Positions 17,360-44,372 of a stretch of DNA of 64,000 nucleotides are shown in pieces (the stretch's first letter is position 1; each line of letters opens with the position of its first letter). Both the position numbers and the translations under genes were made by a program. The notes beneath the pieces were generated by a model. That model saw only the letters and a list, made by a program, of their open reading frames with translations, had not been told where the DNA came from and did no database searches. Where the stretch lies: assembly GCA_016214655.1 (NCBI GenBank), contig JACROC010000004.1, positions 26,084 through 90,083 of the forward strand, in the 5' to 3' direction. Source of the stretch: Candidatus Harrisonbacteria bacterium (GTDB lineage Bacteria; Patescibacteriota; Minisyncoccia; UBA6257; 02-FULL-45-10c).

Positions 17360-17444
17360 GCCGCCGTGGTGGAATTGGCAGACACGCACGACTCAAAATC
17401 GTGTGCTGAAAAGCATGTCGGTTCGACTCCGACCGGCGGCACCA
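17360..17444 (+). tRNA. tRNA-Leu(CAA), type II; CCA encoded
   Basis: GCCGCCGTGGTGGAATTGGCAGACACGCACGACTCAAAATCGTG...CGGCGGCACCA has anticodon loop CTCAAAA and a long variable arm. Confidence 0.85.
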
Positions 17445-17454
17445 AAATATTAAA

Positions 17455-17479
17455 ACCTGCTGTAAAGCAGGTTTTTTTA
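17455..17479 (+). terminator. rho-independent terminator after tRNA-Leu(CAA)
   Basis: CCTGCTGTAAAGCAGG followed by TTTTTTT. Confidence 0.55.
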
Positions 17480-18943
17480 TTAAGGTCTAAATTCAAAATT
17501 ACCAGGAAAACGGTGTCGCTTAGCATTCGGGTCATACGGCCCAAAGACTGTATGGGAAGAAAAGGGATTATTGATGCCGCCAAAATAAATAACTTTGGTT
17601 ATAGTCTTAGCGCTCTGCCAATCAAAATCCTGCAATTGCCTGCGTAAATTATTATCTCTCAGGCAGCGCCGGATAAACTCTCCCCTGCTCCTGGCCCGAG
17701 TTTGCGGAGCGTTAACAACCATTTCTTGAACCATTTTCGGATCAACCAAATGCTTTATCAAACCCCTCTCATTCAGCAGAGCAAATATGCTCTTCCGGGG
17801 AGAAGCGCTGATATTGTGGTATTCCATATTAATTTTAAATGCCTCCGAACTGTTAAGACCAAAATGCCATTTCTTCATTTGGTTTTCCAATAAAAACCAT
17901 TTGGTTGCCCAATCCAATTCGCCAACTAATTTTCTGACCGCCTTCGCTTTAAGTAATTCCAAAATCCTTTCCCATTCCTCCAAGCACTTTTTTTCCGCTA
18001 CTGATAATGGCTTAAGCTGTCTGGCGGCTCTCAGAAATAAATAATTATATTCAACCGCAGATATGGAGCGAGACTGGAGCTGAAAACGATAATCTAAATC
18101 AAATTTAGTATTAAAGCTATGAATATCAGCTATCGGCCGCTTCAGGGTCAGGCGATGTGGCAAGCGCCAGCCTTCTTCGGCTAAGCGCAAAACTAAATGA
18201 GTTATGGTGTCCACCAGCCAAGTCTGTAATTCACAGCGAGTCGCGTCTCGGGAAATCAAATGCATCCGGCTTAAACCACAGGAAGAATCCATCAACGGCT
18301 CTTCCCTGGTATTAATTATTGCGCGCTCCGCAGTCGTACATGAACCGGCCAGCCGCTCTAAGTGATTAGCGCGCTGGGAAAAACAATAAACAAATTTTCC
18401 TTCGTACACCTCATAGATATGGCCGTTTCCGCTCAAAGGCAGCGTAGCCGGTATAAAATTCAACAATAACCGTATAACCTCTTTCCGTTTCTCGATTGCA
18501 TAGGAATAATTGTGGTGGCTGCCATAGGTAACCTCTATAGAATTTCCTATTTCATCTTCACCAGGACCGACATTATTCTTGTAGAAATTAATTACTTTCA
18601 GGTGCCGGCTGTTAACAACCATTTGCGACGCGCGAAGCAGAATTAATTCGGTAGCCTTCTCTTGTAAAATACCGTCCAATGATCCGGCCAGATGTTCCGC
18701 GCCCGCTGCCTCTAATGACTGCTGATCCTTGTAAATTCTGGAACCGTTAGAAAGCCAATAATTGAAATCGGATTTAAAAGCCAAAGCCGGCGCAACTAAG
18801 GGAATTCTGGTAAGAACGGCGTCAATAATTGAATCTCTCCATTCCGAACGAACTTCATCATCATCCCGACAACTCCGCGGAATGGGAAAAATCGTAAGCC
18901 CATATTCTTGTTCTCGTCCGCAAAGCCGCTCTGGCATCGACAT
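17480..18943 (-). CDS. Pup-ligase family protein (PafA/Dop-like carboxylate-amine ligase), divergent paralog 1
   Basis: It contains the GxExEYG N-terminal motif (LCGREQEYGL) plus FYKNNVGPGE, SHHNYSY, INTREEPLMDSSCGLSRMHLISRDATRCE and PPQTRARSRGEFI. It shares roughly 45-50 percent identity with the adjacent paralog by eye. The ORF runs to 19063, but the likely start is ATG 18943 (MSMPERL). Confidence 0.7.
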   Translation of the reverse strand: MSMPERLCGREQEYGLTIFPIPRSCRDDDEVRSEWRDSIIDAVLTRIPLVAPALAFKSDFNYWLSNGSRIYKDQQSLEAAGAEHLAGSLDGILQEKATELILLRASQMVVNSRHLKVINFYKNNVGPGEDEIGNSIEVTYGSHHNYSYAIEKRKEVIRLLLNFIPATLPLSGNGHIYEVYEGKFVYCFSQRANHLERLAGSCTTAERAIINTREEPLMDSSCGLSRMHLISRDATRCELQTWLVDTITHLVLRLAEEGWRLPHRLTLKRPIADIHSFNTKFDLDYRFQLQSRSISAVEYNYLFLRAARQLKPLSVAEKKCLEEWERILELLKAKAVRKLVGELDWATKWFLLENQMKKWHFGLNSSEAFKINMEYHNISASPRKSIFALLNERGLIKHLVDPKMVQEMVVNAPQTRARSRGEFIRRCLRDNNLRRQLQDFDWQSAKTITKVIYFGGINNPFSSHTVFGPYDPNAKRHRFPGNFEFRP

Positions 18944-19023
18944 TCCTATTTTCAAGAAGCTAGTATCTACTATAATTTGGCTGGCAGCATTTGGCAAACC
19001 CCCGCCACAATAAAAAACCCGCA

Positions 19024-20571
19024 TTACTGCGGGGTATCCTTTTTTAAATTCAAATCCCGACAAAGCTTATCAATAGAAGAACTAGTGGGAACAAACGGGT
19101 TATCCTTTTCGCCAAAATAAATCATATCTTGATAATTATTGAATTTGGCCCCGTCCCAATTGAAACGAGTCACTTGATACCAAAGGCGGGAATTAGTTTT
19201 TATTAATTCCAAAAGATCGCCGCGGCATCTTGCGCGAGTTGGCGGCGGAACCAACATCGTCCGTACAATTTCCTCTTCATCTACTAAATGCTGAATATAT
19301 CCCCGCTCCTCTAATCTCGCATACCAGCTTAGATTCGGATCGTTGCTGATATTATGGTACTCCATGTCAATAAGCCAAGCTTGCGGATCGGATAATTCAA
19401 ATCCCTCCCTTTTCATCTGTCTTCGAAGCAATTTCCATTTGGTAACCCAATCCAGCTTACCGACTAATTTATTAAAGGCCCGAGCCATTAACAATTCCAA
19501 AATTTCCTCCCAAGCCTCCAGAGCTTTCTTTTCATTATCAGAAAGCGGGCTTAATTGTTTCGCCAGATCTAAAAACAAATAATTATATTCAAATAAATCC
19601 TTTTTACCGGACAAAAGAGCCAGATAGGGGACGGCGAGGCGTACCTGATAATCAAAATTGGCTTCCAGTGAAAAATTAATTGCTTCTAATTCTGCTCTCG
19701 GATCCTTTAAATCCGGCGGCAGAACTTTTTCGTCTTCAACCTCCTCGGCTATGCGCAAAACCAAATGCATAATAGCATCCACCAACCAAGTTTGGAATTC
19801 GCAGCGCGTAGCATCATGAGAAATAATATGCAAACGACTCAACCCGCAAGACAGATCCATCAATGGCTCATCACGAGTATTGACGATCCCCCTGTCTCCT
19901 CTCAAAGTACCGGATGATTTAAGAAGATTAATATGGGGTACGCGCTGAGAAAGAGTAAAACAAAACTGATTGCCAACGCCCAAACGATGGCTGCGATAAA
20001 CATGTCCGCTGCCGGTCAAAGGAAGACTGGCCGGAATAAAATTAGTCAGCAAAGCATACACCCTTTCCCTTTTGTTTGTCTGGTAAGAATAATTATGGTG
20101 ACTGGCATAACTCACTTCGTCATAGATATCGCCGCGCTCCCCTGGGCCGACGTTATTCTTAAATAGTGAAAATTCTTGCAATCCTCTCTCTGCGATCACT
20201 TTTTCTAAAGCCCTGTTCAGAATCCTTTCAGAGGCTTTTTCTTGCAAAACACCATCCAGAGAACACGGCTCATATTCGGCGCTAGCAAATTCCAGAATTG
20301 AACCAAGGTCAATATATGTTAAACCTCCATTTCTAAGCCACAAGCGATGATTATTAGATCTGGCGTCAAAAAAATAAGCACTTTCCGATTGCATTATCTT
20401 GAAAATAATTTCACTTACAAACTCGGCTCGCCATTGCTCGCGTAAAGCTTGGACACTCTGCACAAACTCCTGCTGCGTAAGAACAGTTAGGGGCGGGAAG
20501 GGAGGGGGCATAAAAACTGGAATAATCTTCATAGCATATTCCTGCTCGCGGCCCACAAGACGATTCTGCAT
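19024..20571 (-). CDS. Pup-ligase family protein (PafA/Dop-like), divergent paralog 2
   Basis: 515 aa. Motifs: MQNRLVGREQEYAM, LFKNNVGPGE, SHHNYSY, VNTRDEPLMDLSCGLSRLHIISHDATRCE, PPPTRARCRGDLL. The HPEY segment of canonical PafA is replaced by ILEFASAEYEP. Confidence 0.7.
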   Translation of the reverse strand: MQNRLVGREQEYAMKIIPVFMPPPFPPLTVLTQQEFVQSVQALREQWRAEFVSEIIFKIMQSESAYFFDARSNNHRLWLRNGGLTYIDLGSILEFASAEYEPCSLDGVLQEKASERILNRALEKVIAERGLQEFSLFKNNVGPGERGDIYDEVSYASHHNYSYQTNKRERVYALLTNFIPASLPLTGSGHVYRSHRLGVGNQFCFTLSQRVPHINLLKSSGTLRGDRGIVNTRDEPLMDLSCGLSRLHIISHDATRCEFQTWLVDAIMHLVLRIAEEVEDEKVLPPDLKDPRAELEAINFSLEANFDYQVRLAVPYLALLSGKKDLFEYNYLFLDLAKQLSPLSDNEKKALEAWEEILELLMARAFNKLVGKLDWVTKWKLLRRQMKREGFELSDPQAWLIDMEYHNISNDPNLSWYARLEERGYIQHLVDEEEIVRTMLVPPPTRARCRGDLLELIKTNSRLWYQVTRFNWDGAKFNNYQDMIYFGEKDNPFVPTSSSIDKLCRDLNLKKDTPQ

Positions 20572-20635
20572 TTTCTTTCTTATTTTATGTCAAACAACTT
20601 ATACCCACTATACGAGCCAGCCAGAAAAAATACAA

Positions 20636-20667
20636 TAGAATCAAAAGGGTCCGACTGGGTCGGACCG
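20636..20667 (-). terminator. hairpin plus U-run just downstream of the Pup-like gene (possible attenuator or terminator)
   Basis: On the minus strand, GGTCCGACCCAGTCGGACC is followed by CTTTTGATT. Confidence 0.35.
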
Positions 20668-20675
20668 ATATATAA

Positions 20676-20873
20676 TTATTCTCCACTCTTCTGCCGGTAT
20701 TCCTGATTAAGCTCTTGCGGATCGCGGTTGCGCGCATTCTTCAGAATATTGCCAAGCTCTTCATCCGCTTCCAAATCCTTCTCTTCTTCCTCTTCTTCCT
20801 CTTCGCCATTTTTCTTCTTCTTTTTAGGCTCTTCCTTCTTTGGCGGTTTCTCCGGCGGCTTTTGCTCGCTCAT
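20676..20873 (-). CDS. pup: Pup-like prokaryotic ubiquitin-like protein with C-terminal QKSGE
   Basis: 65 aa. The N-terminal half is Lys/Glu-rich and looks disordered. The C-terminus ELNQEYRQKSGE resembles the mycobacterial Pup C-terminus (YVQKGGQ) and ends in Glu. The gene lies between PafA/Dop-family genes on the same strand. Confidence 0.65.
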   Translation of the reverse strand: MSEQKPPEKPPKKEEPKKKKKNGEEEEEEEEKDLEADEELGNILKNARNRDPQELNQEYRQKSGE

Positions 20874-20891
20874 TCTTCGCTTTTTAAACCA

Positions 20892-22361
20892 TTAAAGTCC
20901 TAAAATGGATTGTAGCACAACGGCCGTAGAATTATCAAGTACCGGATCCATCAGATCAACGGAAATATCCACTGAATCATTTACCCTAATCTTAATCCCA
21001 GACCAATCAACTTCCACCACCCGATCGCCTAATTTCTTCAAAAGTCCGCTTCTCAAAAACGCACGAGTATTAGCCGGCGCATCAAATTTAGCCGCCAGAA
21101 TCTGTTCATCCGTTACCAGCCGCTTGATTTTGCCAGATTTTACCAATTCGTAATAAAGGCCGTCACTAGCCACCTTCCGGAACAGCTTACTAAAGCCCAG
21201 TGCGGCATCCGGCTGCAATTTTGTAAGCGCCCAAGTGGTAGTCCAATCTAAATATCCGAAAGTTTTCATTGGATCCTTCTCTAGAATCTCCGACAACTCT
21301 AAAGCTTTTGCGACCGCCTGAGTATGCTGATCGGTCATTGGATGCACATTCAAATATTTTCCGGCAGCCAATAAGTACTTTCTCAATATTTCTAGACCAG
21401 TCATTCGCTGACCACCCTCTAAATCAATCATTTCTTTGAATCTGAGGTCGCGCGAGATTTTGATAATTGCTTCAACCGGTTTTTTAGGCAGCAACACTTC
21501 TTCCAAAAACCGGTCTTCAATCATGGCCAGAACTACTTGAGTCAAGGCAATCCGCAAAAAATCCGCGTATTCGCACATCAAGGCATCAGTAGAAATATCA
21601 TGAAGGCGGAAATATTTTTTAGCCGTAGCATGCGGTTCGTCACGCAAATTGAAAATCGGGCGGCTTTCCATGGTATTAATAGCCACCAATCGTTCAAAAA
21701 AATCTGCTCGCTGAGATAACTGGAAAGCGCAAGATGGGCGGTCATTTTCACTGCCGACTTTACCGCCTCCGGTCAAAATAATTCTGCTGATTTGGAATGG
21801 TAAATAATGTTGCAATAAATAAAGAAAGTTATCTTTCTCGGAAACCAAATCCCGGCTTAAAAGAATATTGAGATGGGAACCATAACTCTTGCCGGCGCCA
21901 TCGCTGTTATTTTTATGAAGCACAATTCTGTCCTTGCGGCTGGCCAGTTGGTTTAAATAAAGCCGCAAAGCATCCATCATCACCAATTCGCTGGCTTTGT
22001 CATGAACGACCAAATCCAACGGATTCAGGCACTCTGGGGTGGAATATTCCGGATGATCAACGTCCATATAAAATCGAGCGCCATTGCCCAAAAATCCGTC
22101 CAATTCCGGACCGATATTATCTGCTAGGACGTCATGAGCCGTTTCTTTAAAAAGACCGGCTACATCTTCCAAGGTAATAACGCTGGTTCGGCGGGCTTCT
22201 TTAGATTTATCATGACGGACTGCTTTTTGATATTTCAAAAATTCTTTTACAAAACTGCGCAAAATCTCCCGATATTCATCTCCCAACAATTGATTCCCGC
22301 CTTGGTCAAGAACTGAAAAACCGAATTCATTTTCTATCCCGCAAACCTTAGAGATAGCCAT
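20892..22361 (-). CDS. Pup ligase/deamidase family protein (PafA/Dop), canonical-like
   Basis: 489 aa. Strong matches to PafA signature blocks: CGIENEFGF, GNGARFYMDVDHPEYSTPEC, LHKNNSDGAGKSYGSHLN, FQLSQRADFF, SRPIFNLRDEPHATAKKYFRLHDISTDALMCEY. It sits immediately upstream of pup, as dop does in actinobacteria. Confidence 0.8.
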   Translation of the reverse strand: MAISKVCGIENEFGFSVLDQGGNQLLGDEYREILRSFVKEFLKYQKAVRHDKSKEARRTSVITLEDVAGLFKETAHDVLADNIGPELDGFLGNGARFYMDVDHPEYSTPECLNPLDLVVHDKASELVMMDALRLYLNQLASRKDRIVLHKNNSDGAGKSYGSHLNILLSRDLVSEKDNFLYLLQHYLPFQISRIILTGGGKVGSENDRPSCAFQLSQRADFFERLVAINTMESRPIFNLRDEPHATAKKYFRLHDISTDALMCEYADFLRIALTQVVLAMIEDRFLEEVLLPKKPVEAIIKISRDLRFKEMIDLEGGQRMTGLEILRKYLLAAGKYLNVHPMTDQHTQAVAKALELSEILEKDPMKTFGYLDWTTTWALTKLQPDAALGFSKLFRKVASDGLYYELVKSGKIKRLVTDEQILAAKFDAPANTRAFLRSGLLKKLGDRVVEVDWSGIKIRVNDSVDISVDLMDPVLDNSTAVVLQSILGL

Positions 22362-22420
22362 GTTCTCATATTCCTTTCTTAAAGAATCTGAACATACTTT
22401 AAACTAAAATTGCTATTAAT

Positions 22421-22449
22421 ACAAACAAAAACCCGACTTCCGTCGGGTA
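22421..22449 (-). terminator. rho-independent terminator after the ARC ATPase gene
   Basis: On the minus strand, ACCCGACGGAAGTCGGGT is followed by TTTTTGTTTGT. Confidence 0.45.
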
Positions 22450-22457
22450 CTAATTAC

Positions 22458-24281
22458 TTAACCAGCAAATCCTGTAATCGGCTTATTCACAGCTTCCTTG
22501 AAATTGTTTTTCAATCTTTCGACCTCTTCATCAATAGCCATGAAAAAATCCTTCTTTTTGATATCGGCAACCGGGTCCTTTTCACCAGCTACTTTTGATC
22601 TATGATATCTTTCTAATGCAATCATTTTGGCGCCATCAACGATACTCTTAATAATCGCACCGGAAAGATAGTTCTTCAACATCACATCTTCATTGCCCTT
22701 TACAGTTTCAACCCGGAAAATATTATTAACTGTCAATTCGGTGCCATCGCTAAATCTGATTTTAACTTCTCTGCCAGTATACGCCAATCGCTTAGCAATA
22801 AGATCGATGAAATGCTCGCGAATTTTTTCTAAATCACCACTCAGAACTACCTCCTCCTCTTCACCACTACCAAAAGAATCAATATATTTGTAAATATGGT
22901 TTTCAAGATATTTTCTAGAAAACGGGAGGTCGGCAGCAAGATAAATCCGGAGGATTTCTTTGACATCCCGCATGGTTTTAGGACGAGGAATAAAAACATC
23001 AACACCTAATCTTCCGGGACGTAAAATTGCCTTGTCCACTAAGTCCTTACGATTAGTCGCGGCCAAGACCAAGATATTTCCCAGGGGATCCACTCCATCA
23101 AGAATTTGATTAAACTGACCAATGTCGGTCGCCATCCAAGGCTCATGCTCCGAGGTGTCACGGCTCCGAAAAAGCGAGTCGATTTCATCTATGAAAACTA
23201 CCACTAGCGCTCCTTCAGCTGCCTTTTCTTTGGCTCTAGCAAAAACTTCCCGGATTTTTCTGGCAGTTTCGCCTACATATTTATGGGTAAGTTCTGCTCC
23301 GCCAATATTCATGAAAAAGCAAGGCAAACCCAACGATCGTCCGAGGTCCGCACCGATGGCTTTAGCGCAAAGAGTTTTTCCGCAGCCCTCTGGCCCATGA
23401 AGAATCAAGCCCTTGGGCATATCCTTTCCCTTAAAAACCTTCACGTAAACTTCTCTCTCTTTAAATGGCAAAAGGATGCGCTGGATTTTCTTAACCGATT
23501 TGGAAAGGCCGCCAACCTGATCCCAAGTGATATCGCTGACATTCTGCAGATCTAAAAAGTGCTCTGACTCTTCGGTTTTGGGTAAAACCCGAATCAGCAC
23601 CCCGCCGCAATTCAAAAGCCGGTCTCCGTCTTTTAATCTCGTTTCTTTCAAATCTGGACTGATATAGCATTGCTGTATCTCGTTATGAGAACTCTCGACT
23701 TCTGCCAATTCCGGATTAATATATGACCGGAAAGTAACAGCCGAGCCCCAATTCCAATATAGCTTAGTCACTTCCACGACCTGACTCTTCCCGTTAACAC
23801 CCACTTCCCAGCCGGATTTTAAATCAGTAGCCTTCGTATTTGGTATTGCCAGCGGCAATTTTCTAAACTGTCCTTCAATTAATACATCAACCTCTTCCAG
23901 TTTGCCGCCGGGATGAGGCCGGACGAATATGCCGTAAGTAAGAGGCGGAGAAGCTAATTGCTCCCGCCATTTCTTACGCCAATTCTCGACCTCCTCCAGC
24001 GCCTTTTTATAACGCTCTTTTTCCTTGGCGCACTCTACCAGTCTCTTCAACAGCCTCTGAATCTCCTCTGATAGCTGGACCCGCTCATGGCGAAGCTGTT
24101 GATTCTCCTCCGCCTTCGCCTCAAGACGCTTGATTCTTTCGTGTGCATCTTGTAATTGATTTAGTAATTCTTTCTCTTGGTGATTCTCCTTTTGGGCGTT
24201 TCCACTTTTCCCTTTTCGTAAACGCTCGAGAAAAACACTTAAATCAGACATTTTCCATTTCATATCCAAATCCCTTATCAA
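22458..24281 (-). CDS. ARC/Mpa-like AAA+ ATPase (N-terminal coiled coil, OB-like region, single AAA module)
   Basis: 607 aa. The N-terminal coiled coil reads ELLNQLQDAHERIKRLEAKAEENQQLRHERVQLSEEIQRLLKRL. It is followed by a beta-rich OB-like region, Walker A GPEGCGKT and Walker B VVFIDEIDS. The C-terminus is ...KPITGFAG, with no GQYL/HbYX tail. Confidence 0.75.
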   Translation of the reverse strand: MIRDLDMKWKMSDLSVFLERLRKGKSGNAQKENHQEKELLNQLQDAHERIKRLEAKAEENQQLRHERVQLSEEIQRLLKRLVECAKEKERYKKALEEVENWRKKWREQLASPPLTYGIFVRPHPGGKLEEVDVLIEGQFRKLPLAIPNTKATDLKSGWEVGVNGKSQVVEVTKLYWNWGSAVTFRSYINPELAEVESSHNEIQQCYISPDLKETRLKDGDRLLNCGGVLIRVLPKTEESEHFLDLQNVSDITWDQVGGLSKSVKKIQRILLPFKEREVYVKVFKGKDMPKGLILHGPEGCGKTLCAKAIGADLGRSLGLPCFFMNIGGAELTHKYVGETARKIREVFARAKEKAAEGALVVVFIDEIDSLFRSRDTSEHEPWMATDIGQFNQILDGVDPLGNILVLAATNRKDLVDKAILRPGRLGVDVFIPRPKTMRDVKEILRIYLAADLPFSRKYLENHIYKYIDSFGSGEEEEVVLSGDLEKIREHFIDLIAKRLAYTGREVKIRFSDGTELTVNNIFRVETVKGNEDVMLKNYLSGAIIKSIVDGAKMIALERYHRSKVAGEKDPVADIKKKDFFMAIDEEVERLKNNFKEAVNKPITGFAG

Positions 24282-24359: not shown

Positions 24360-24968
24360 TTAATCAGCGCTTGCTCTGCAGCCGGGACACAGACATCCCT
24401 CAGCCTTTTTCCATCGCGGATACCTATAAAGGCCGCCGGATAAACAAGTTAGATAGGTGTGAAATCCGGATCTGCCGGTAAAATGCAGATCCACTTCCCG
24501 CATCTTCCAAGTATCGCCTCCTGGCCAAGCCTGTAGGGGATTATTTAATGAATACCAGACTCCGTCACGCTCTTGCCAGCGATCAGAAACCCAGCCTAAA
24601 GTGTAACGATAGCTGCCAGGAACCAACTCAAATTCAACTTCTTTGCAGCTTTTAAGCTGTTCGTAAGATTCGATTAAATTTCCAATTACCGGAAAAAGCT
24701 TTAATATCCCAAACACAAAATTCCTAAGCAGATCAATTCGTAACAAGAATCCGGTTAAATAAAGAAAAGCTGCAACCAGAGATACATTAAATAAAAAATT
24801 AAGGAAAAGGTTTCCGGTAAAAGAAAATCCTATTTTCTCAAAAAGCCCCCAGGCCAACACCCAAAGATAGTATAAAACATAGGCAAGTATAGAAAAGATT
24901 GCCCAAAAAAGAAGCCCTTCTTTCTGAATCGCCGACTGCCTAGCCCAAAATCCCTTCTTCTCTCCCAT
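24360..24968 (-). CDS. hypothetical polytopic membrane protein
   Basis: 202 aa with several TM helices. No family recognised. Confidence 0.4.
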   Translation of the reverse strand: MGEKKGFWARQSAIQKEGLLFWAIFSILAYVLYYLWVLAWGLFEKIGFSFTGNLFLNFLFNVSLVAAFLYLTGFLLRIDLLRNFVFGILKLFPVIGNLIESYEQLKSCKEVEFELVPGSYRYTLGWVSDRWQERDGVWYSLNNPLQAWPGGDTWKMREVDLHFTGRSGFHTYLTCLSGGLYRYPRWKKAEGCLCPGCRASAD

Positions 24969-34185: not shown

Positions 34186-34578
34186 TCATTTTTCCGAAAC
34201 CGATTTCAGCCAGCCACCGAGCATTCTTCCGATTTCCTGCAGCAGCGATTGGAGCCGGACATATTTTTTCGCATCAATAATTTTTATTTCCTTCAAAAGC
34301 CTCACTAATATTTTCAAAGTATCAAACTTAGAACTAGCCTTCTGAAGAGCAACGTATTTGCCGGACTTGTTAATGCCGGCCGCAAAAAGAATCAGCTCTA
34401 AAAATTCTAAGGCGGCATCTTCACATCTTTTACCAAGAGTATAGCGATCTTTCTTTGGAAAAAGTTCTGCATAGGAATAAAATAACTTATAAAAATCGTA
34501 AATTTTCTGTACGATAGGAGTATCCAGATGCAATCCCTCTTCTTGAATATGAAAATTGTCCATAATATTTTTGATCAA
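34186..34578 (-). CDS. Avd-like four-helix-bundle accessory protein (23S rRNA-intervening-sequence protein family)
   Basis: About 130 aa, helical, similar to four-helix-bundle proteins found beside DGR reverse transcriptases. It starts at TTG 34578 or ATG 34563. It is divergent from and slightly overlaps the RT gene. Confidence 0.55.
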   Translation of the reverse strand: MIKNIMDNFHIQEEGLHLDTPIVQKIYDFYKLFYSYAELFPKKDRYTLGKRCEDAALEFLELILFAAGINKSGKYVALQKASSKFDTLKILVRLLKEIKIIDAKKYVRLQSLLQEIGRMLGGWLKSVSEK

Positions 34579-35592
34579 ATTATTTCTTTAGAAAACCTTT
34601 TTCACGCCTGGGATATATTTAAAGTCGGCAAAAGAAGCAAGGCCGATGTCCAGGAATTTGAAAGAAATCTTGAAGATAATATTTTTGCGCTGCATAAAGA
34701 ATTAGAAGATAAAACTTATATTCATAGAGGCTATACCTCTTTTTACATAACCGATCCCAAAGTCCGCCATATTCATAAAGCCCTGGTAAGAGATCGCGTG
34801 ATCCACCACGCTCTCTTTAATGTGCTCTATCCGATTTTTGATAAGACCTTTATCTCTGAATCGTATTCCTGCCGTATCAATAAAGGTACTCATAAAGCAG
34901 TGGATCGCTTCCAAATATATTCGCAAAAAGTAACTAAAAATCACACTAAAAAATGTTTTGTCTTGAAATGCGATATTCAAAAGTTTTTTGCGAGCATTGA
35001 TCATGCTATTTTAAAAACGTTTATAGAAAATAAAATTAAAGATAAAAACGTCTTATGGCTTATAAATATAATTATTGATAGTTTTCACTCAGAAGTAGGG
35101 CTGAATAAAGGCGCGCCAATTGGCAATTTAACTTCTCAATTATTTGCCAATATCTATCTCACTGAACTTGATCAATTTATAAAACAAAACTTAAAAATCC
35201 CTTACTACATTCGATACACGGATGACTTTGTTATCTTGAGTGAAAGTAAAGAATTTTTAATAAAGCTTATCCCAATAATTGAAAAATTCCTGAAATCCAA
35301 CTTAAAACTCACTTTGCACCCCAATAAAATCAGTATCAGGCCATATCATCAGGGAATTGATTTCTTGGGTTACGTACTGTTTCCCCATCATCGCACTCCA
35401 AGGACTCGCACCCGAAGGAGAATCTTTAATAAATTGGAATCTAATATAGCGCTTTGTAAAAATGAGAAGATTCCTATCACCACCCTTGATAATTCTTTGC
35501 AATCTTACTTTGGGTTTTTGAAGCACGCGAATTCCTACAAACTAACGCAAAAATTAAAAAACCAGATTTGGTTCTGGCTGCAAGAAAAATAA
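34528..35592 (+). CDS. diversity-generating retroelement reverse transcriptase
   Basis: 354 aa. RT motifs are present, including YIRYTDDFVIL (YxDD). The DGR-specific motif 4 reads IGNLTSQLF (IGxxxSQ, in place of the group II QGxxxSP). The N-terminus is typical of DGR RTs. Confidence 0.85.
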   Translation: MQSLFLNMKIVHNIFDQIISLENLFHAWDIFKVGKRSKADVQEFERNLEDNIFALHKELEDKTYIHRGYTSFYITDPKVRHIHKALVRDRVIHHALFNVLYPIFDKTFISESYSCRINKGTHKAVDRFQIYSQKVTKNHTKKCFVLKCDIQKFFASIDHAILKTFIENKIKDKNVLWLINIIIDSFHSEVGLNKGAPIGNLTSQLFANIYLTELDQFIKQNLKIPYYIRYTDDFVILSESKEFLIKLIPIIEKFLKSNLKLTLHPNKISIRPYHQGIDFLGYVLFPHHRTPRTRTRRRIFNKLESNIALCKNEKIPITTLDNSLQSYFGFLKHANSYKLTQKLKNQIWFWLQEK

Positions 35593-40842: not shown

Positions 40843-40963
40843 CCCTAGCAAATCCTACTTTCTCGCCAACTCGAAGTCGGTAATATCATCGGAGATATAG
40901 GCTTTCACTTCCGAGTTCGGAATGGGATCGGGTGGGACACCTATAGCTAAATCACTAGGAGAC
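40843..40963 (-). rRNA. rrf: 5S ribosomal RNA
   Basis: The reverse complement contains GTCCCACCCGATCCCATTCCGAACTCGGAAGTGAAA, matching the 5S consensus. It lies about 60 nt downstream of the 23S 3' end. Confidence 0.8.
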
Positions 40964-41023
40964 AAAATAATACACGGATTTTAAAAAAATGTAATTAAGA
41001 ATGAATACTAACTTAAGAGGTCA

Positions 41024-44372
<3,349 letters not shown>

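Follow-up and report, generated by a model that had tools for sequence, protein, structure and literature searches.

We analysed a cluster of five genes at positions 17480-24281 of a 64-kb stretch of DNA (hereafter the window, meaning the whole stretch analysed), in which predicted relatives of the unfoldase Mpa/ARC, of the Dop/PafA enzyme family, and of the protein modifier Pup lie side by side. The small protein and the enzymes are identical to proteins of a metagenome-assembled genome of Candidatus Harrisonbacteria bacterium deposited at NCBI (109-kb contig), whose taxonomy (Patescibacteria group, Parcubacteria group) agrees with the host that an earlier note, made from the sequence alone, had suspected. 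All five open reading frames (ORFs) that the note described as co-directional are present, head to tail on the minus strand, and encode in gene order an AAA+ ATPase, a Dop-type enzyme of 489 aa, a 65-aa Pup/UBact-like modifier (the tag), and two divergent Pup_ligase paralogs that we call par2 and par3 (Table 1), separated by gaps of 96, 18, 104, and ~80 nt. Gene order and orientation are the same as in the actinobacterial Pup-proteasome cluster, mpa-dop-pup-prcBA-pafA, once prcBA is removed. The note had proposed this order and had put the paralogs in the place of prcBA; the order stood, and the paralogs turned out to be at the place of pafA after prcBA loss. Judged from these sequences and their relatives, the cluster probably encodes a functional, vertically inherited, and highly divergent Pup/UBact-type tagging module that works without a 20S proteasome.

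We compared the cluster with related and reference loci (designated by L-numbers, L001 etc.), the related ones coming from ENA, JGI, NCBI, and Logan assemblies and being reached via homologs of the paralogs; look-ups of the exact tag and 489-aa sequences in the contig index gave no match. The five genes occur in the same order in the window, L001, L002, L003/L004, L005, L091, and L167, and in part in L089 and L095. At least eight independent assemblies from four data sources have the cluster in the same core-gene synteny, with rpoB-rpoC-S6-SSB-(S18)-PAP2 on one side and ParB-RelA/SpoT-TopA-DprA on the other; one sub-lineage has RecO/ProRS upstream of the cluster instead. Ortholog identity across the loci is 40-81% at the protein level. 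We give practically no credence to the idea that the cluster is an artefact or a relic, i.e., actinobacterial contamination, a mis-binned contig, or pseudogenes decaying after a recent horizontal transfer, and consider it effectively refuted. It could appeal to the fact that pupylation genes are typical of Actinomycetota and to the truncation of par2 and par3 in one related genome (L167). Against this, the genes are embedded on one contig between rpoBC/S6/SSB/S18 and ParB/RelA/TopA, GC content is 40-47% throughout the window with no compositional break at the cluster, a 23S rRNA gene in the style of the candidate phyla radiation (CPR) lies 17 kb away, protein identity to actinobacterial homologs is no higher than 31-41%, and the frames are intact with catalytic residues conserved across the orthologs. 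The repetition of the same core-gene synteny in independent assemblies excludes contamination, which had been thought unlikely from the outset, and mis-assembly as well. By comparison of the orthologs, the cluster is vertically inherited under purifying selection within one CPR lineage. A profile search of genome contigs with an alignment of the Dop-type enzyme returned, as the best matches listed, canonical Dop loci at 33-39% identity, with no CPR genome among the matches listed; these canonical loci supplied our reference sets of Dop, PafA, Pup, Mpa, and PrcAB.

The first gene encodes the ATPase, for which the earlier description as a coiled-coil/OB/AAA protein of the Mpa/ARC type holds. It matches Pfam AAA (2.8e-30) and, weakly, Prot_ATP_ID_OB_N (3.4e-4; 20.7 bits, below the cut-off of 23.4). 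Its best NCBIfam family is pup_AAA, TIGR03689 (283.4 bits over profile positions 18-390 of 512, vs. 169 bits for PAN), at a score below the equivalog cut-off of that family (504.75 bits), and among PDB chains only Mpa of Mycobacterium tuberculosis (7px9) aligns across the coiled coil, OB, and AAA regions, over ATPase residues 59-454. An alignment with six reference Mpa proteins reveals Walker A (GPEGCGKT), the pore loop KYVGE, Walker B (FIDEID), the RPGR arginines, both OB blocks, and a heptad-rich N terminus, read as the coiled coil. Architecture and pore loop are those of actinobacterial Mpa; unlike it, the CPR ATPases carry two lineage-specific insertions of 17-18 aa and have lost the C-terminal GQYL, which is missing together with the preceding ~40 residues (~45 in all) in 9/9 CPR orthologs. 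The tail is present at all 66 of the 66 reference Mpa C termini (GQYL in 64, GHYF in 2), and GQYL is the motif that inserts into the alpha-ring pockets of the 20S particle in docking (PMC8223512).

The partner of that tail is missing from the locus as well. HMMs (hidden Markov models) of PrcA and PrcB, built from 69 and 70 reference-locus sequences with Pfam-verified seeds, found nothing (E of at least 4 throughout; best E ~4-7 in the window) when run on every ORF of 40 aa or more in the 64-kb window and 15 CPR loci, whereas positive controls from Nitrospirota, Rokuibacteriota, and Omnitrophota scored 390-495 bits (cross-detection of the other subunit, ~20 bits). Likewise, the precomputed Pfam annotation of the flanks contains no PF00227 in any related locus. 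The claim that neither prcA nor prcB occurs in the 64 kb is thereby borne out, and none of the 16 related loci examined has a 20S gene; these searches cover the 64-kb window and, for each related locus, the surrounding ~20 kb. In the reference loci prcBA always lies between pup and pafA, a space that measures ~100 nt here. The lost GQYL tail and the absence of 20S genes from the searched sequence together support a proteasome-independent system, and the suggestion that tagging feeds unfolding rather than proteolysis, as in Corynebacterium, gains independent support from the loss of the docking tail.

The C terminus of the ATPase may also point the other way. In all nine CPR ATPases (window, L001, L002, L004, L005, L089, L091, L095, and L167), a conserved [I/L/P]-x-G-F lies 1-12 residues from an otherwise variable end: the window protein ends in ITGFAG (within 22458-22490), and the other tails read IVGFK, IPGFSQ, RIGFDS.., PLGFMPEK, IGFTK, IPGFTP, PIGFIKNE, and EIGFKS... 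This conserved xGF tail may serve in docking onto some other partner. It is similar to the tripeptides IGF/LGF, with which ClpX, ClpA, and ClpC dock onto ClpP; those are internal loops, not tails. A 20S operon may also lie elsewhere in the genome, the searched sequence consisting of the 64 kb and the related loci. The system may then still be degradative, the ATPase handing tagged proteins either to a 20S particle encoded elsewhere or to a ClpP/HslV-type protease docked through the [I/L/P]-x-G-F tail. We consider this unlikely, given the ~100 nt left where prcBA lies in every reference locus and the complete loss of the GQYL tail, which argues against 20S docking (PMC8223512). As for other proteases, tblastn with an E. 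coli ClpP query gave no match in the window or across 272 kb of related CPR loci, a search that lacked a positive control and is uninformative, and no peptidase emerged from Pfam scans of 20 mid-sized ORFs of the window.

The second gene encodes the 489-aa enzyme, which the earlier note had assigned to the PafA/Dop family and cast as the likely ligase. Family membership is clear (PF03136 Pup_ligase, 341 bits; gathering threshold, 25), and for all three enzymes of the cluster the Pup-ligase assignment prevails over GCS2-type ligases: they score 209-341 bits, and AlphaFold2 (AF2) models of par2 and the Dop-type enzyme have template modelling (TM) scores of 0.74-0.85 to Dop/PafA vs. ~0.4 to YbdK/GCS2-type ligases. 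The ligase role did not stand. In NCBIfam the 489-aa enzyme scores 297.6 bits with TIGR03688 (Dop) vs. 241.6 bits with TIGR03686 (PafA), the former below the Dop equivalog cut-off of 492.3 bits. The NCBI pipeline annotates it as "PafA2 family," and its named matches beyond its own clade are Dop, PafA2, Pup amidohydrolase, or proteasome accessory factor A (33-41% identity); none of the annotated matches outside the clade bears the name Pup ligase. Profile-profile alignment with hhalign scores the Dop-type clade at 815 vs. Dop, 585 vs. PafA, and 320 vs. par2/par3. The AF2 model has a predicted local distance difference test (pLDDT) score of 90.7, and its six best Foldseek matches in the PDB are all Dop (TM 0.83-0.85).

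Local features of this enzyme agree with the scores. The positions that discriminate Dop from PafA have been defined experimentally by Hecht et al. in their Table 1 (PMC7947786). The Dop-loop, inserted between the GhExE and NG.R.Y.D strands, is 75-83 aa long in the CPR enzymes (80 in the window) vs. 63-76 in Dop and 38 in PafA; its acidic residue E55 is conserved in at least 90% of the CPR and canonical Dop sequences, and its pLDDT is low in the AF2 model, as expected of a mobile loop. No insertion follows the catalytic Asp (YMD-VDHPEYSTPE), and Ser-Thr-Pro follows HPEY; YxD-xxHPEYSTPE and an aromatic "FF" at the start of the alpha-loop, instead of His174, are found in 8/8 orthologs. The Dop-loop and the HPEYSTPE motif are common to actinobacterial Dop and the CPR enzyme, and the GhExE motif and catalytic Asp are common to the ligase-family enzymes of both systems, here as GIENEF and D100 (8/8 orthologs). 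Because Dop-loop length, discriminator states, NCBIfam and hhalign scores, match names, and Foldseek ranking agree, we classify the 489-aa enzyme as Dop-type, i.e., as a predicted deamidase/depupylase and not a ligase. An assay of tag conjugation with it would probably fail, and the ligase candidates are par2 and par3. The Dop-type clade is small, with ~40 clusters in 5.8 billion proteins (canonical Dop, 301 bits; members, at least 469).

The third gene, which encodes the tag, is in every locus flanked by the Dop-type gene and the first PafA-like gene. The window protein ends in ...ILKNARNRDPQELNQEYRQKSGE, with YRQKSGE as its final residues, and has a disordered N-terminal half rich in Lys and Glu. 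Nine distinct orthologs of 60-71 aa share the C-terminal consensus D[IL]G.IL.D......[QE][IL]...[YF]RQK[SPGA]G[EQ], and the terminus [YFK][RK]Q[KR][SPGA]G[EQ] is found in 9/9, ending in Glu in five and in Gln in four. The tag and actinobacterial Pup are both small and disordered, end in x-Q-K-x-G-[EQ], and exist in Glu and Gln forms; that both forms occur among the orthologs, mirroring Pup, implies a working deamidase. As for the N-terminal half (20784-20850), a KKKKK run is followed by 8-9 Glu, a layout kept in 9/9 orthologs and unlike that of actinobacterial Pup. The tag lysines could act as acceptor sites for tag-on-tag chains.

Membership of the tag in the Pup/UBact class is remote, and several results weigh against it. 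No match to Pfam Pup (PF05639; gathering threshold, 27 bits) appears even at E <=10, although the model works on a genuine Pup from L060 (71.7 bits); with the UBact model NF033388 (cut-off, 35 bits) the window tag gives no match and the best CPR tag (P0002) reaches 9.3 bits (E 1.3). The C terminus is xG[EQ] rather than GG[EQ]: all nine orthologs keep the penultimate Gly, eight have Ser, Pro, or Ala for the first Gly, and only L004 ends in GGQ. What links the tag to Pup is profile-profile alignment, the C-terminal motif, and gene position only. A profile of the nine orthologs aligns end to end, C terminus to C terminus, with a 60-member profile of genuine Pups from the reference loci (hhalign probability 77%, score 28.4); column-shuffled controls score 8.4 +/- 1.5 (maximum 11.8) and the reversed profile scores 18.1. 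The C-terminal segment is also like that of a UBact sequence that scores 77 bits on NF033388 and is taken to read LLKRMRRVDPDQAKRYRQRTGE there; the tag is 45% identical to it over the last 22 aa (hhalign E 1e-3). On this evidence the tag is a remote member of the Pup/UBact class that falls in neither curated family. The earlier claim of a Pup-like protein thus survives through the profile alignment, the terminal motif, and the position of the gene, without a match to either curated model.

UBact systems, which occur in Nitrospirota, Verrucomicrobiota, and others (NCBIfam NF033388), resemble the CPR system in having non-actinobacterial hosts and homologs of Mpa, Dop, and PafA alongside the modifier; the CPR tags differ in remaining at or below 9.3 bits on the UBact model. 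The 2017 UBact paper of Lehmann et al. is said to report that UBact loci include proteasome genes and, reportedly, may list some Parcubacteria-type candidate phyla as carriers; if that listing is correct, a tag of this kind in the CPR would not be wholly without precedent. No UBact gene adjoining dop turned up in the Nitrospirota and Rokuibacteriota loci L065, L024, L066, and L068. Two of them, L065:9758-14321 and L024:9926-14991, read mpa-dop-prcB-prcA-pafA, and the dop-prcB interval and the flanks of both revealed no recognisable small ORF with a G[EQ] end; L024 has an unassigned gap of ~600 nt between dop and prcB; the tag gene of the Nitrospirota (L065) and Rokuibacteriota (L024) must be located elsewhere or be atypical.

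The last two genes encode divergent members of the Pup_ligase family. par2 and par3 match PF03136 at 209 and 230 bits, respectively (par3 as the 527-aa ORF; gathering threshold as above). In NCBIfam par2 scores 158 bits with PafA and 157.5 with Dop, and par3 scores 172 and 157, both below the TIGR03686 PafA equivalog cut-off of 551.3 bits. They had been called two extra PafA paralogs, and the family assignment stands; "extra" does not, since they occupy the usual place of pafA once prcBA is removed, making the system one of Dop plus a duplicated PafA-like gene, with one extra enzyme only. The GhExE motif and catalytic Asp are GREQEY and D88 in par2 (9/9 orthologs) and GREQEY and D73 in par3 (8/8). 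Of the residues invariant in 59 reference Dop/PafA sequences, both paralogs keep E9, E11, Y55, D57, E63, E68, K110, N112, H123, N125, R171, R187, R205, H207, D212, and E217 (PafA numbering), a set that lines the active-site cradle; each core catalytic residue of par3 is retained by 6-8 of the 8 orthologs.

At the discriminator positions the paralogs lean to PafA, whose states are a one-residue insertion with Gly-Ser after the catalytic Asp, Ala65-Thr66-Ala67, and His174 (PMC7947786). par2 has the one-residue insertion (YID-LGS-) in 8/9 orthologs, A-[TS]-A-E in most, and His174 as "HI" in 8/9; of the eight par3 orthologs, only two carry the insertion, most read A/S-x-A-E, and six have "HI" or "HL." The hhalign scores of the joint par2/par3 profile (457 vs. 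PafA, 421 vs. Dop, and 320 vs. the CPR Dop-type clade; 947 for Dop vs. PafA) agree weakly with this leaning. We therefore predict that par2 and/or par3 are the ligases of the system.

A number of observations speak against that prediction. Both paralogs have lost the family-invariant residues H61 and P62 (of HPEY), D114, E124, R130, R148, H197, and R204, and par2 also R53; the losses include the H of DEPHAD, invariant in both PafA and Dop, and the profile scores just given place the pair far from both families. The AF2 model of par2 (pLDDT 90.3) has a Foldseek TM score of ~0.75 to both Dop and PafA, so that Foldseek does not favour PafA over Dop. Its alpha-loop (residues 211-226, pLDDT ~82) is modelled as a three-residue helix followed by a strand and a loop, not as the long helix of PafA, a helical alpha-loop being the prime discriminator of ligase from hydrolase (PMC7947786). 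The predicted loop resembles that of the Dop-type enzyme, and the AF2 model does not discriminate ligase from hydrolase. In L167 (10001-12749; GCA_016192685.1, JACPTS010000001.1, 608 kb; a near-complete Harrisonbacteria genome), par2 stops after ~380 aa, without its C-terminal domain, and par3 is frameshifted into 363 + 99 aa, with the ATPase, Dop-type, and tag genes all intact; the damage is either an assembly error or real erosion of paralogs that are dispensable there.

par2 and par3 might accordingly carry out another ATP-dependent carboxylate-amine/amide reaction or form a regulatory pair of pseudo-ligases, with the tag handled by the Dop-type enzyme or a bifunctional version of it. The boundary between ligase and hydrolase is soft, as engineered Dop variants can ligate (PMC7947786), and a related tandem pair stands on L168 with no tag gene visible. 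This reading nevertheless seems improbable to us in view of the intact core catalytic set of both proteins, the PafA-specific states near the catalytic Asp and at His174, and the place directly downstream of the tag gene, which is invariant in every locus. No other ligase candidate exists in the cluster, and the Dop-loop of the Dop-type enzyme disfavours ligation.

In a neighbor-joining (NJ) tree, par2 and par3 form one clade with 100% support in which they are not reciprocally monophyletic, and in L005 both paralog copies are par3-like with identical N termini. The Dop-type clade joins par2/par3 in the same tree (85% bootstrap), a grouping that we rejected as most likely due to long-branch attraction, because the Dop-type clade scores 815 to Dop vs. 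320 to par2/par3 in hhalign. The paralog clade is rare, with ~36 clusters at 90% identity in 5.8 billion proteins (canonical PafA, 150 bits; members, at least 295), and a HMMER scan of 1.84 billion representatives at 50% identity retrieved 18 full-length members followed by a small tier of 230-280 bits. The L168 pair belongs to this tier, just outside the clade: L168:115-3091 (Logan SRR22387871, 3.5 kb, 46% GC) holds two tandem Pup_ligase genes of 492 and 502 aa that overlap by 11 nt. These proteins share the motifs LRLAEEG, LSPL..E...L..WE, and LVG.LDW.TKW with par2/par3; unlike par2/par3 they keep HPEY, and their 3.5-kb contig shows no ATPase or tag gene. The L168 pair and the single Dop/PafA homolog of Planctomycetes (PMC7947786) are orphan PF03136 lineages that, like par2/par3, are divergent and fall outside the Dop/PafA dichotomy, with ~29-31% identity to both sides.

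Table 1. Genes of the cluster and features associated with its transcription units (window coordinates)
Feature	Position	Strand	Remarks
Mpa/ARC-type AAA+ ring ATPase (ORF)	22458..24281	-	607 aa; likely ATG start 24263
Dop-type enzyme, predicted deamidase/depupylase	20892..22361	-	489 aa; MBI4991818.1
Pup/UBact-like modifier (tag)	20676..20873	-	65 aa
par2, divergent PafA-leaning Pup_ligase paralog, predicted ligase	19024..20571	-	515 aa
par3, second divergent PafA-leaning paralog	17480..18943	-	487 aa from ATG at 18943
Terminator-like hairpin + T-run, directly 3' of ATPase stop codon	22431..22448	-	consensus scan, pattern match only
Terminator-like hairpin GGTCCGAC-CCA-GTCGGACC + T-run, directly 3' of tag gene	20648..20666	-	consensus scan
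Terminator-like hairpin across par2 stop codon	19018..19033	-	consensus scan
Bidirectional terminator-like hairpin, between par3 stop codon and tRNA-Leu	17452..17475	.	marks cluster end
Convergent tRNA-Leu(CAA), closing the cluster	17360-17444		

The start codons given for two of the genes differ from those of the longest ORFs. The ATPase probably starts at the internal ATG given in Table 1. For par3, a start at TTG 19063 (the 527-aa ORF) was rejected as over-extended, as the Pfam match begins only at residue 82; the ATG at 18943 (MSMPERLCGREQEYG) aligns with the N termini of all orthologs, removes the overlap with the par2 stop codon and its hairpin, and is almost certainly the true start. 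A GC-rich hairpin and T-run ends each of four blocks (ATPase; Dop-type gene and tag; par2; par3), a pattern that suggests separate transcripts or graded read-through and not a single, simple operon.

Two genes near the cluster were considered as further parts of the system and set aside. Directly upstream of the ATPase lies a gene for a predicted membrane protein of 202 aa without a Pfam match (24360-24968, minus strand); L002 has a similar unannotated 197-aa gene, L001 and L005 have none, and the protein is probably no part of the system. The PAP2 gene is not a conserved neighbour in all loci. Farther away, the 23S rRNA gene (41013-44351, minus strand) is 3,339 nt long vs. a 2,925-nt model, with ~400 nt inserted, and 5S rRNA lies at 40843-40959 (minus strand); no 16S rRNA occurs anywhere in the 64-kb window, indicating rRNA genes that are unlinked and carry insertions. 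Such genes are often described for the CPR. A reverse transcriptase of 354 aa (Pfam RVT_1, 7.8e-23) is encoded at 34528-35592 on the plus strand, adjoined by a small ORF on the opposite strand (34186-34578); a check for a diversity-generating retroelement found no template/variable-type direct repeat of 40 nt or more within 32.5-38 kb around it, and the enzyme may belong to a retron, a group II intron, or a DGR.

Compared with the actinobacterial Pup-proteasome system, the CPR cluster thus lacks prcBA, its ATPase lacks the GQYL tail and has the two insertions, and its tag misses the Pup HMM, has a poly-Lys/poly-Glu N-terminal half, and shows [SPGA]G in place of GG. A pair of PafA-like genes stands in place of the single pafA, both products being only ~31-33% identical to PafA and devoid of the HP of HPEY and the H of DEPHAD, and the NCBIfam equivalog cut-offs are all missed by a wide margin. 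Closer parallels are the proteasome-less pupylation loci known in Corynebacterium and Micrococcus (arc-dop-pup-pafA; PMC8223512), where the logic of the reduced locus and the predicted outcome, tagging, unfolding by ARC, and untagging by Dop, are the same. In Corynebacterium glutamicum, which is without prcBA, ARC is proposed to unfold pupylated ferritin and Dop to recycle the tag (PMC8223512). The CPR system is unlike these in that its host belongs to the Patescibacteria, with genomes well below 1 Mb, and in having a duplicated, strongly altered PafA-like gene. Pupylation enzymes diverge most in lineages that lack the proteasome, and the strong divergence of proteasome-lacking actinobacteria after proteasome loss follows the same trend as in the CPR (PMC3511204).

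Homology suggests how the module might work, and each of the following steps is inferred from it. Tags ending in Gln would be deamidated by the Dop-type enzyme, a step that the window tag, already ending in Glu, would not need. par2 and/or par3 would then use ATP to phosphorylate the gamma-carboxylate of the C-terminal Glu and ligate the tag to lysines of target proteins, and two ligases would allow two target ranges. The hexameric Mpa-like ATPase would capture the tag on its coiled coil, thread the Lys/Glu-rich N-terminal part through the KYVGE pore, and unfold or disassemble the target, and the Dop-type enzyme would remove and recycle the tag. With the GQYL tail lost and no 20S genes nearby, the outcome would be remodelling or disassembly, not proteasomal proteolysis, and nothing would be handed to a 20S particle. 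In the simplest history, the gene order is the canonical mpa-dop-pup-prcB-prcA-pafA (PMC3511204) with prcBA deleted and pafA duplicated, followed by acceleration.

The prevailing view holds pupylation to be essentially an actinobacterial trait that reached Nitrospirota and a few further phyla by sporadic transfer (PMC7947786, PMC3511204), and a full-text search of open papers returned none linking it with the CPR, Patescibacteria, Parcubacteria, or Harrisonbacteria. The earlier note had called the finding unusual, which is right as regards the CPR host; proteasome-less pupylation itself was already known from Corynebacterium and Micrococcus (PMC8223512), and this lowers the surprise. The NCBI pipeline, moreover, already labels the enzymes "PafA2 family." Novelty lies in four features that come together here: the host belongs to the CPR, the tag escapes the Pup and UBact models, the Mpa has no tail, and a conserved pair of strongly modified PafA-like proteins forms a distinct and rare subfamily. 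Taken together, we favour, as the better-supported account, a Corynebacterium-like, proteasome-independent system of tagging, unfolding, and untagging with a new ligase subfamily. We give a modest chance, well below that, to a bolder reading: a third type of bacterial ubiquitin-like system beside Pup and UBact, with a poly-Lys/poly-Glu tag ending in xG[E/Q], two specialised and non-redundant ligases of a new PafA-like subfamily, and a tail-less unfoldase that would either stand alone or be rewired through its xGF motif to a non-proteasomal partner such as ClpP. If true, it would be the first multi-ligase, "E3-like" diversification in pupylation.

Under the favoured account, the cluster is the first conserved case of two PafA-like enzymes in one operon, and its naturally divergent Dop-like and PafA-like sequences offer a test of the published rules for telling hydrolase from ligase. 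Substrates would carry a testable mass signature, Lys +273.096 Da from a Ser-Gly-Glu remnant, in groundwater metaproteomes. The function of pupylation is usually framed around the 20S proteasome. Here a host whose genome type is among the smallest known spends ~7 kb, roughly 1% of its genome, on genes for tagging, untagging, and unfolding, and that these are kept under extreme genome reduction, without protease and docking tail, suggests that the proteasome-independent function of pupylation would be a valuable one.

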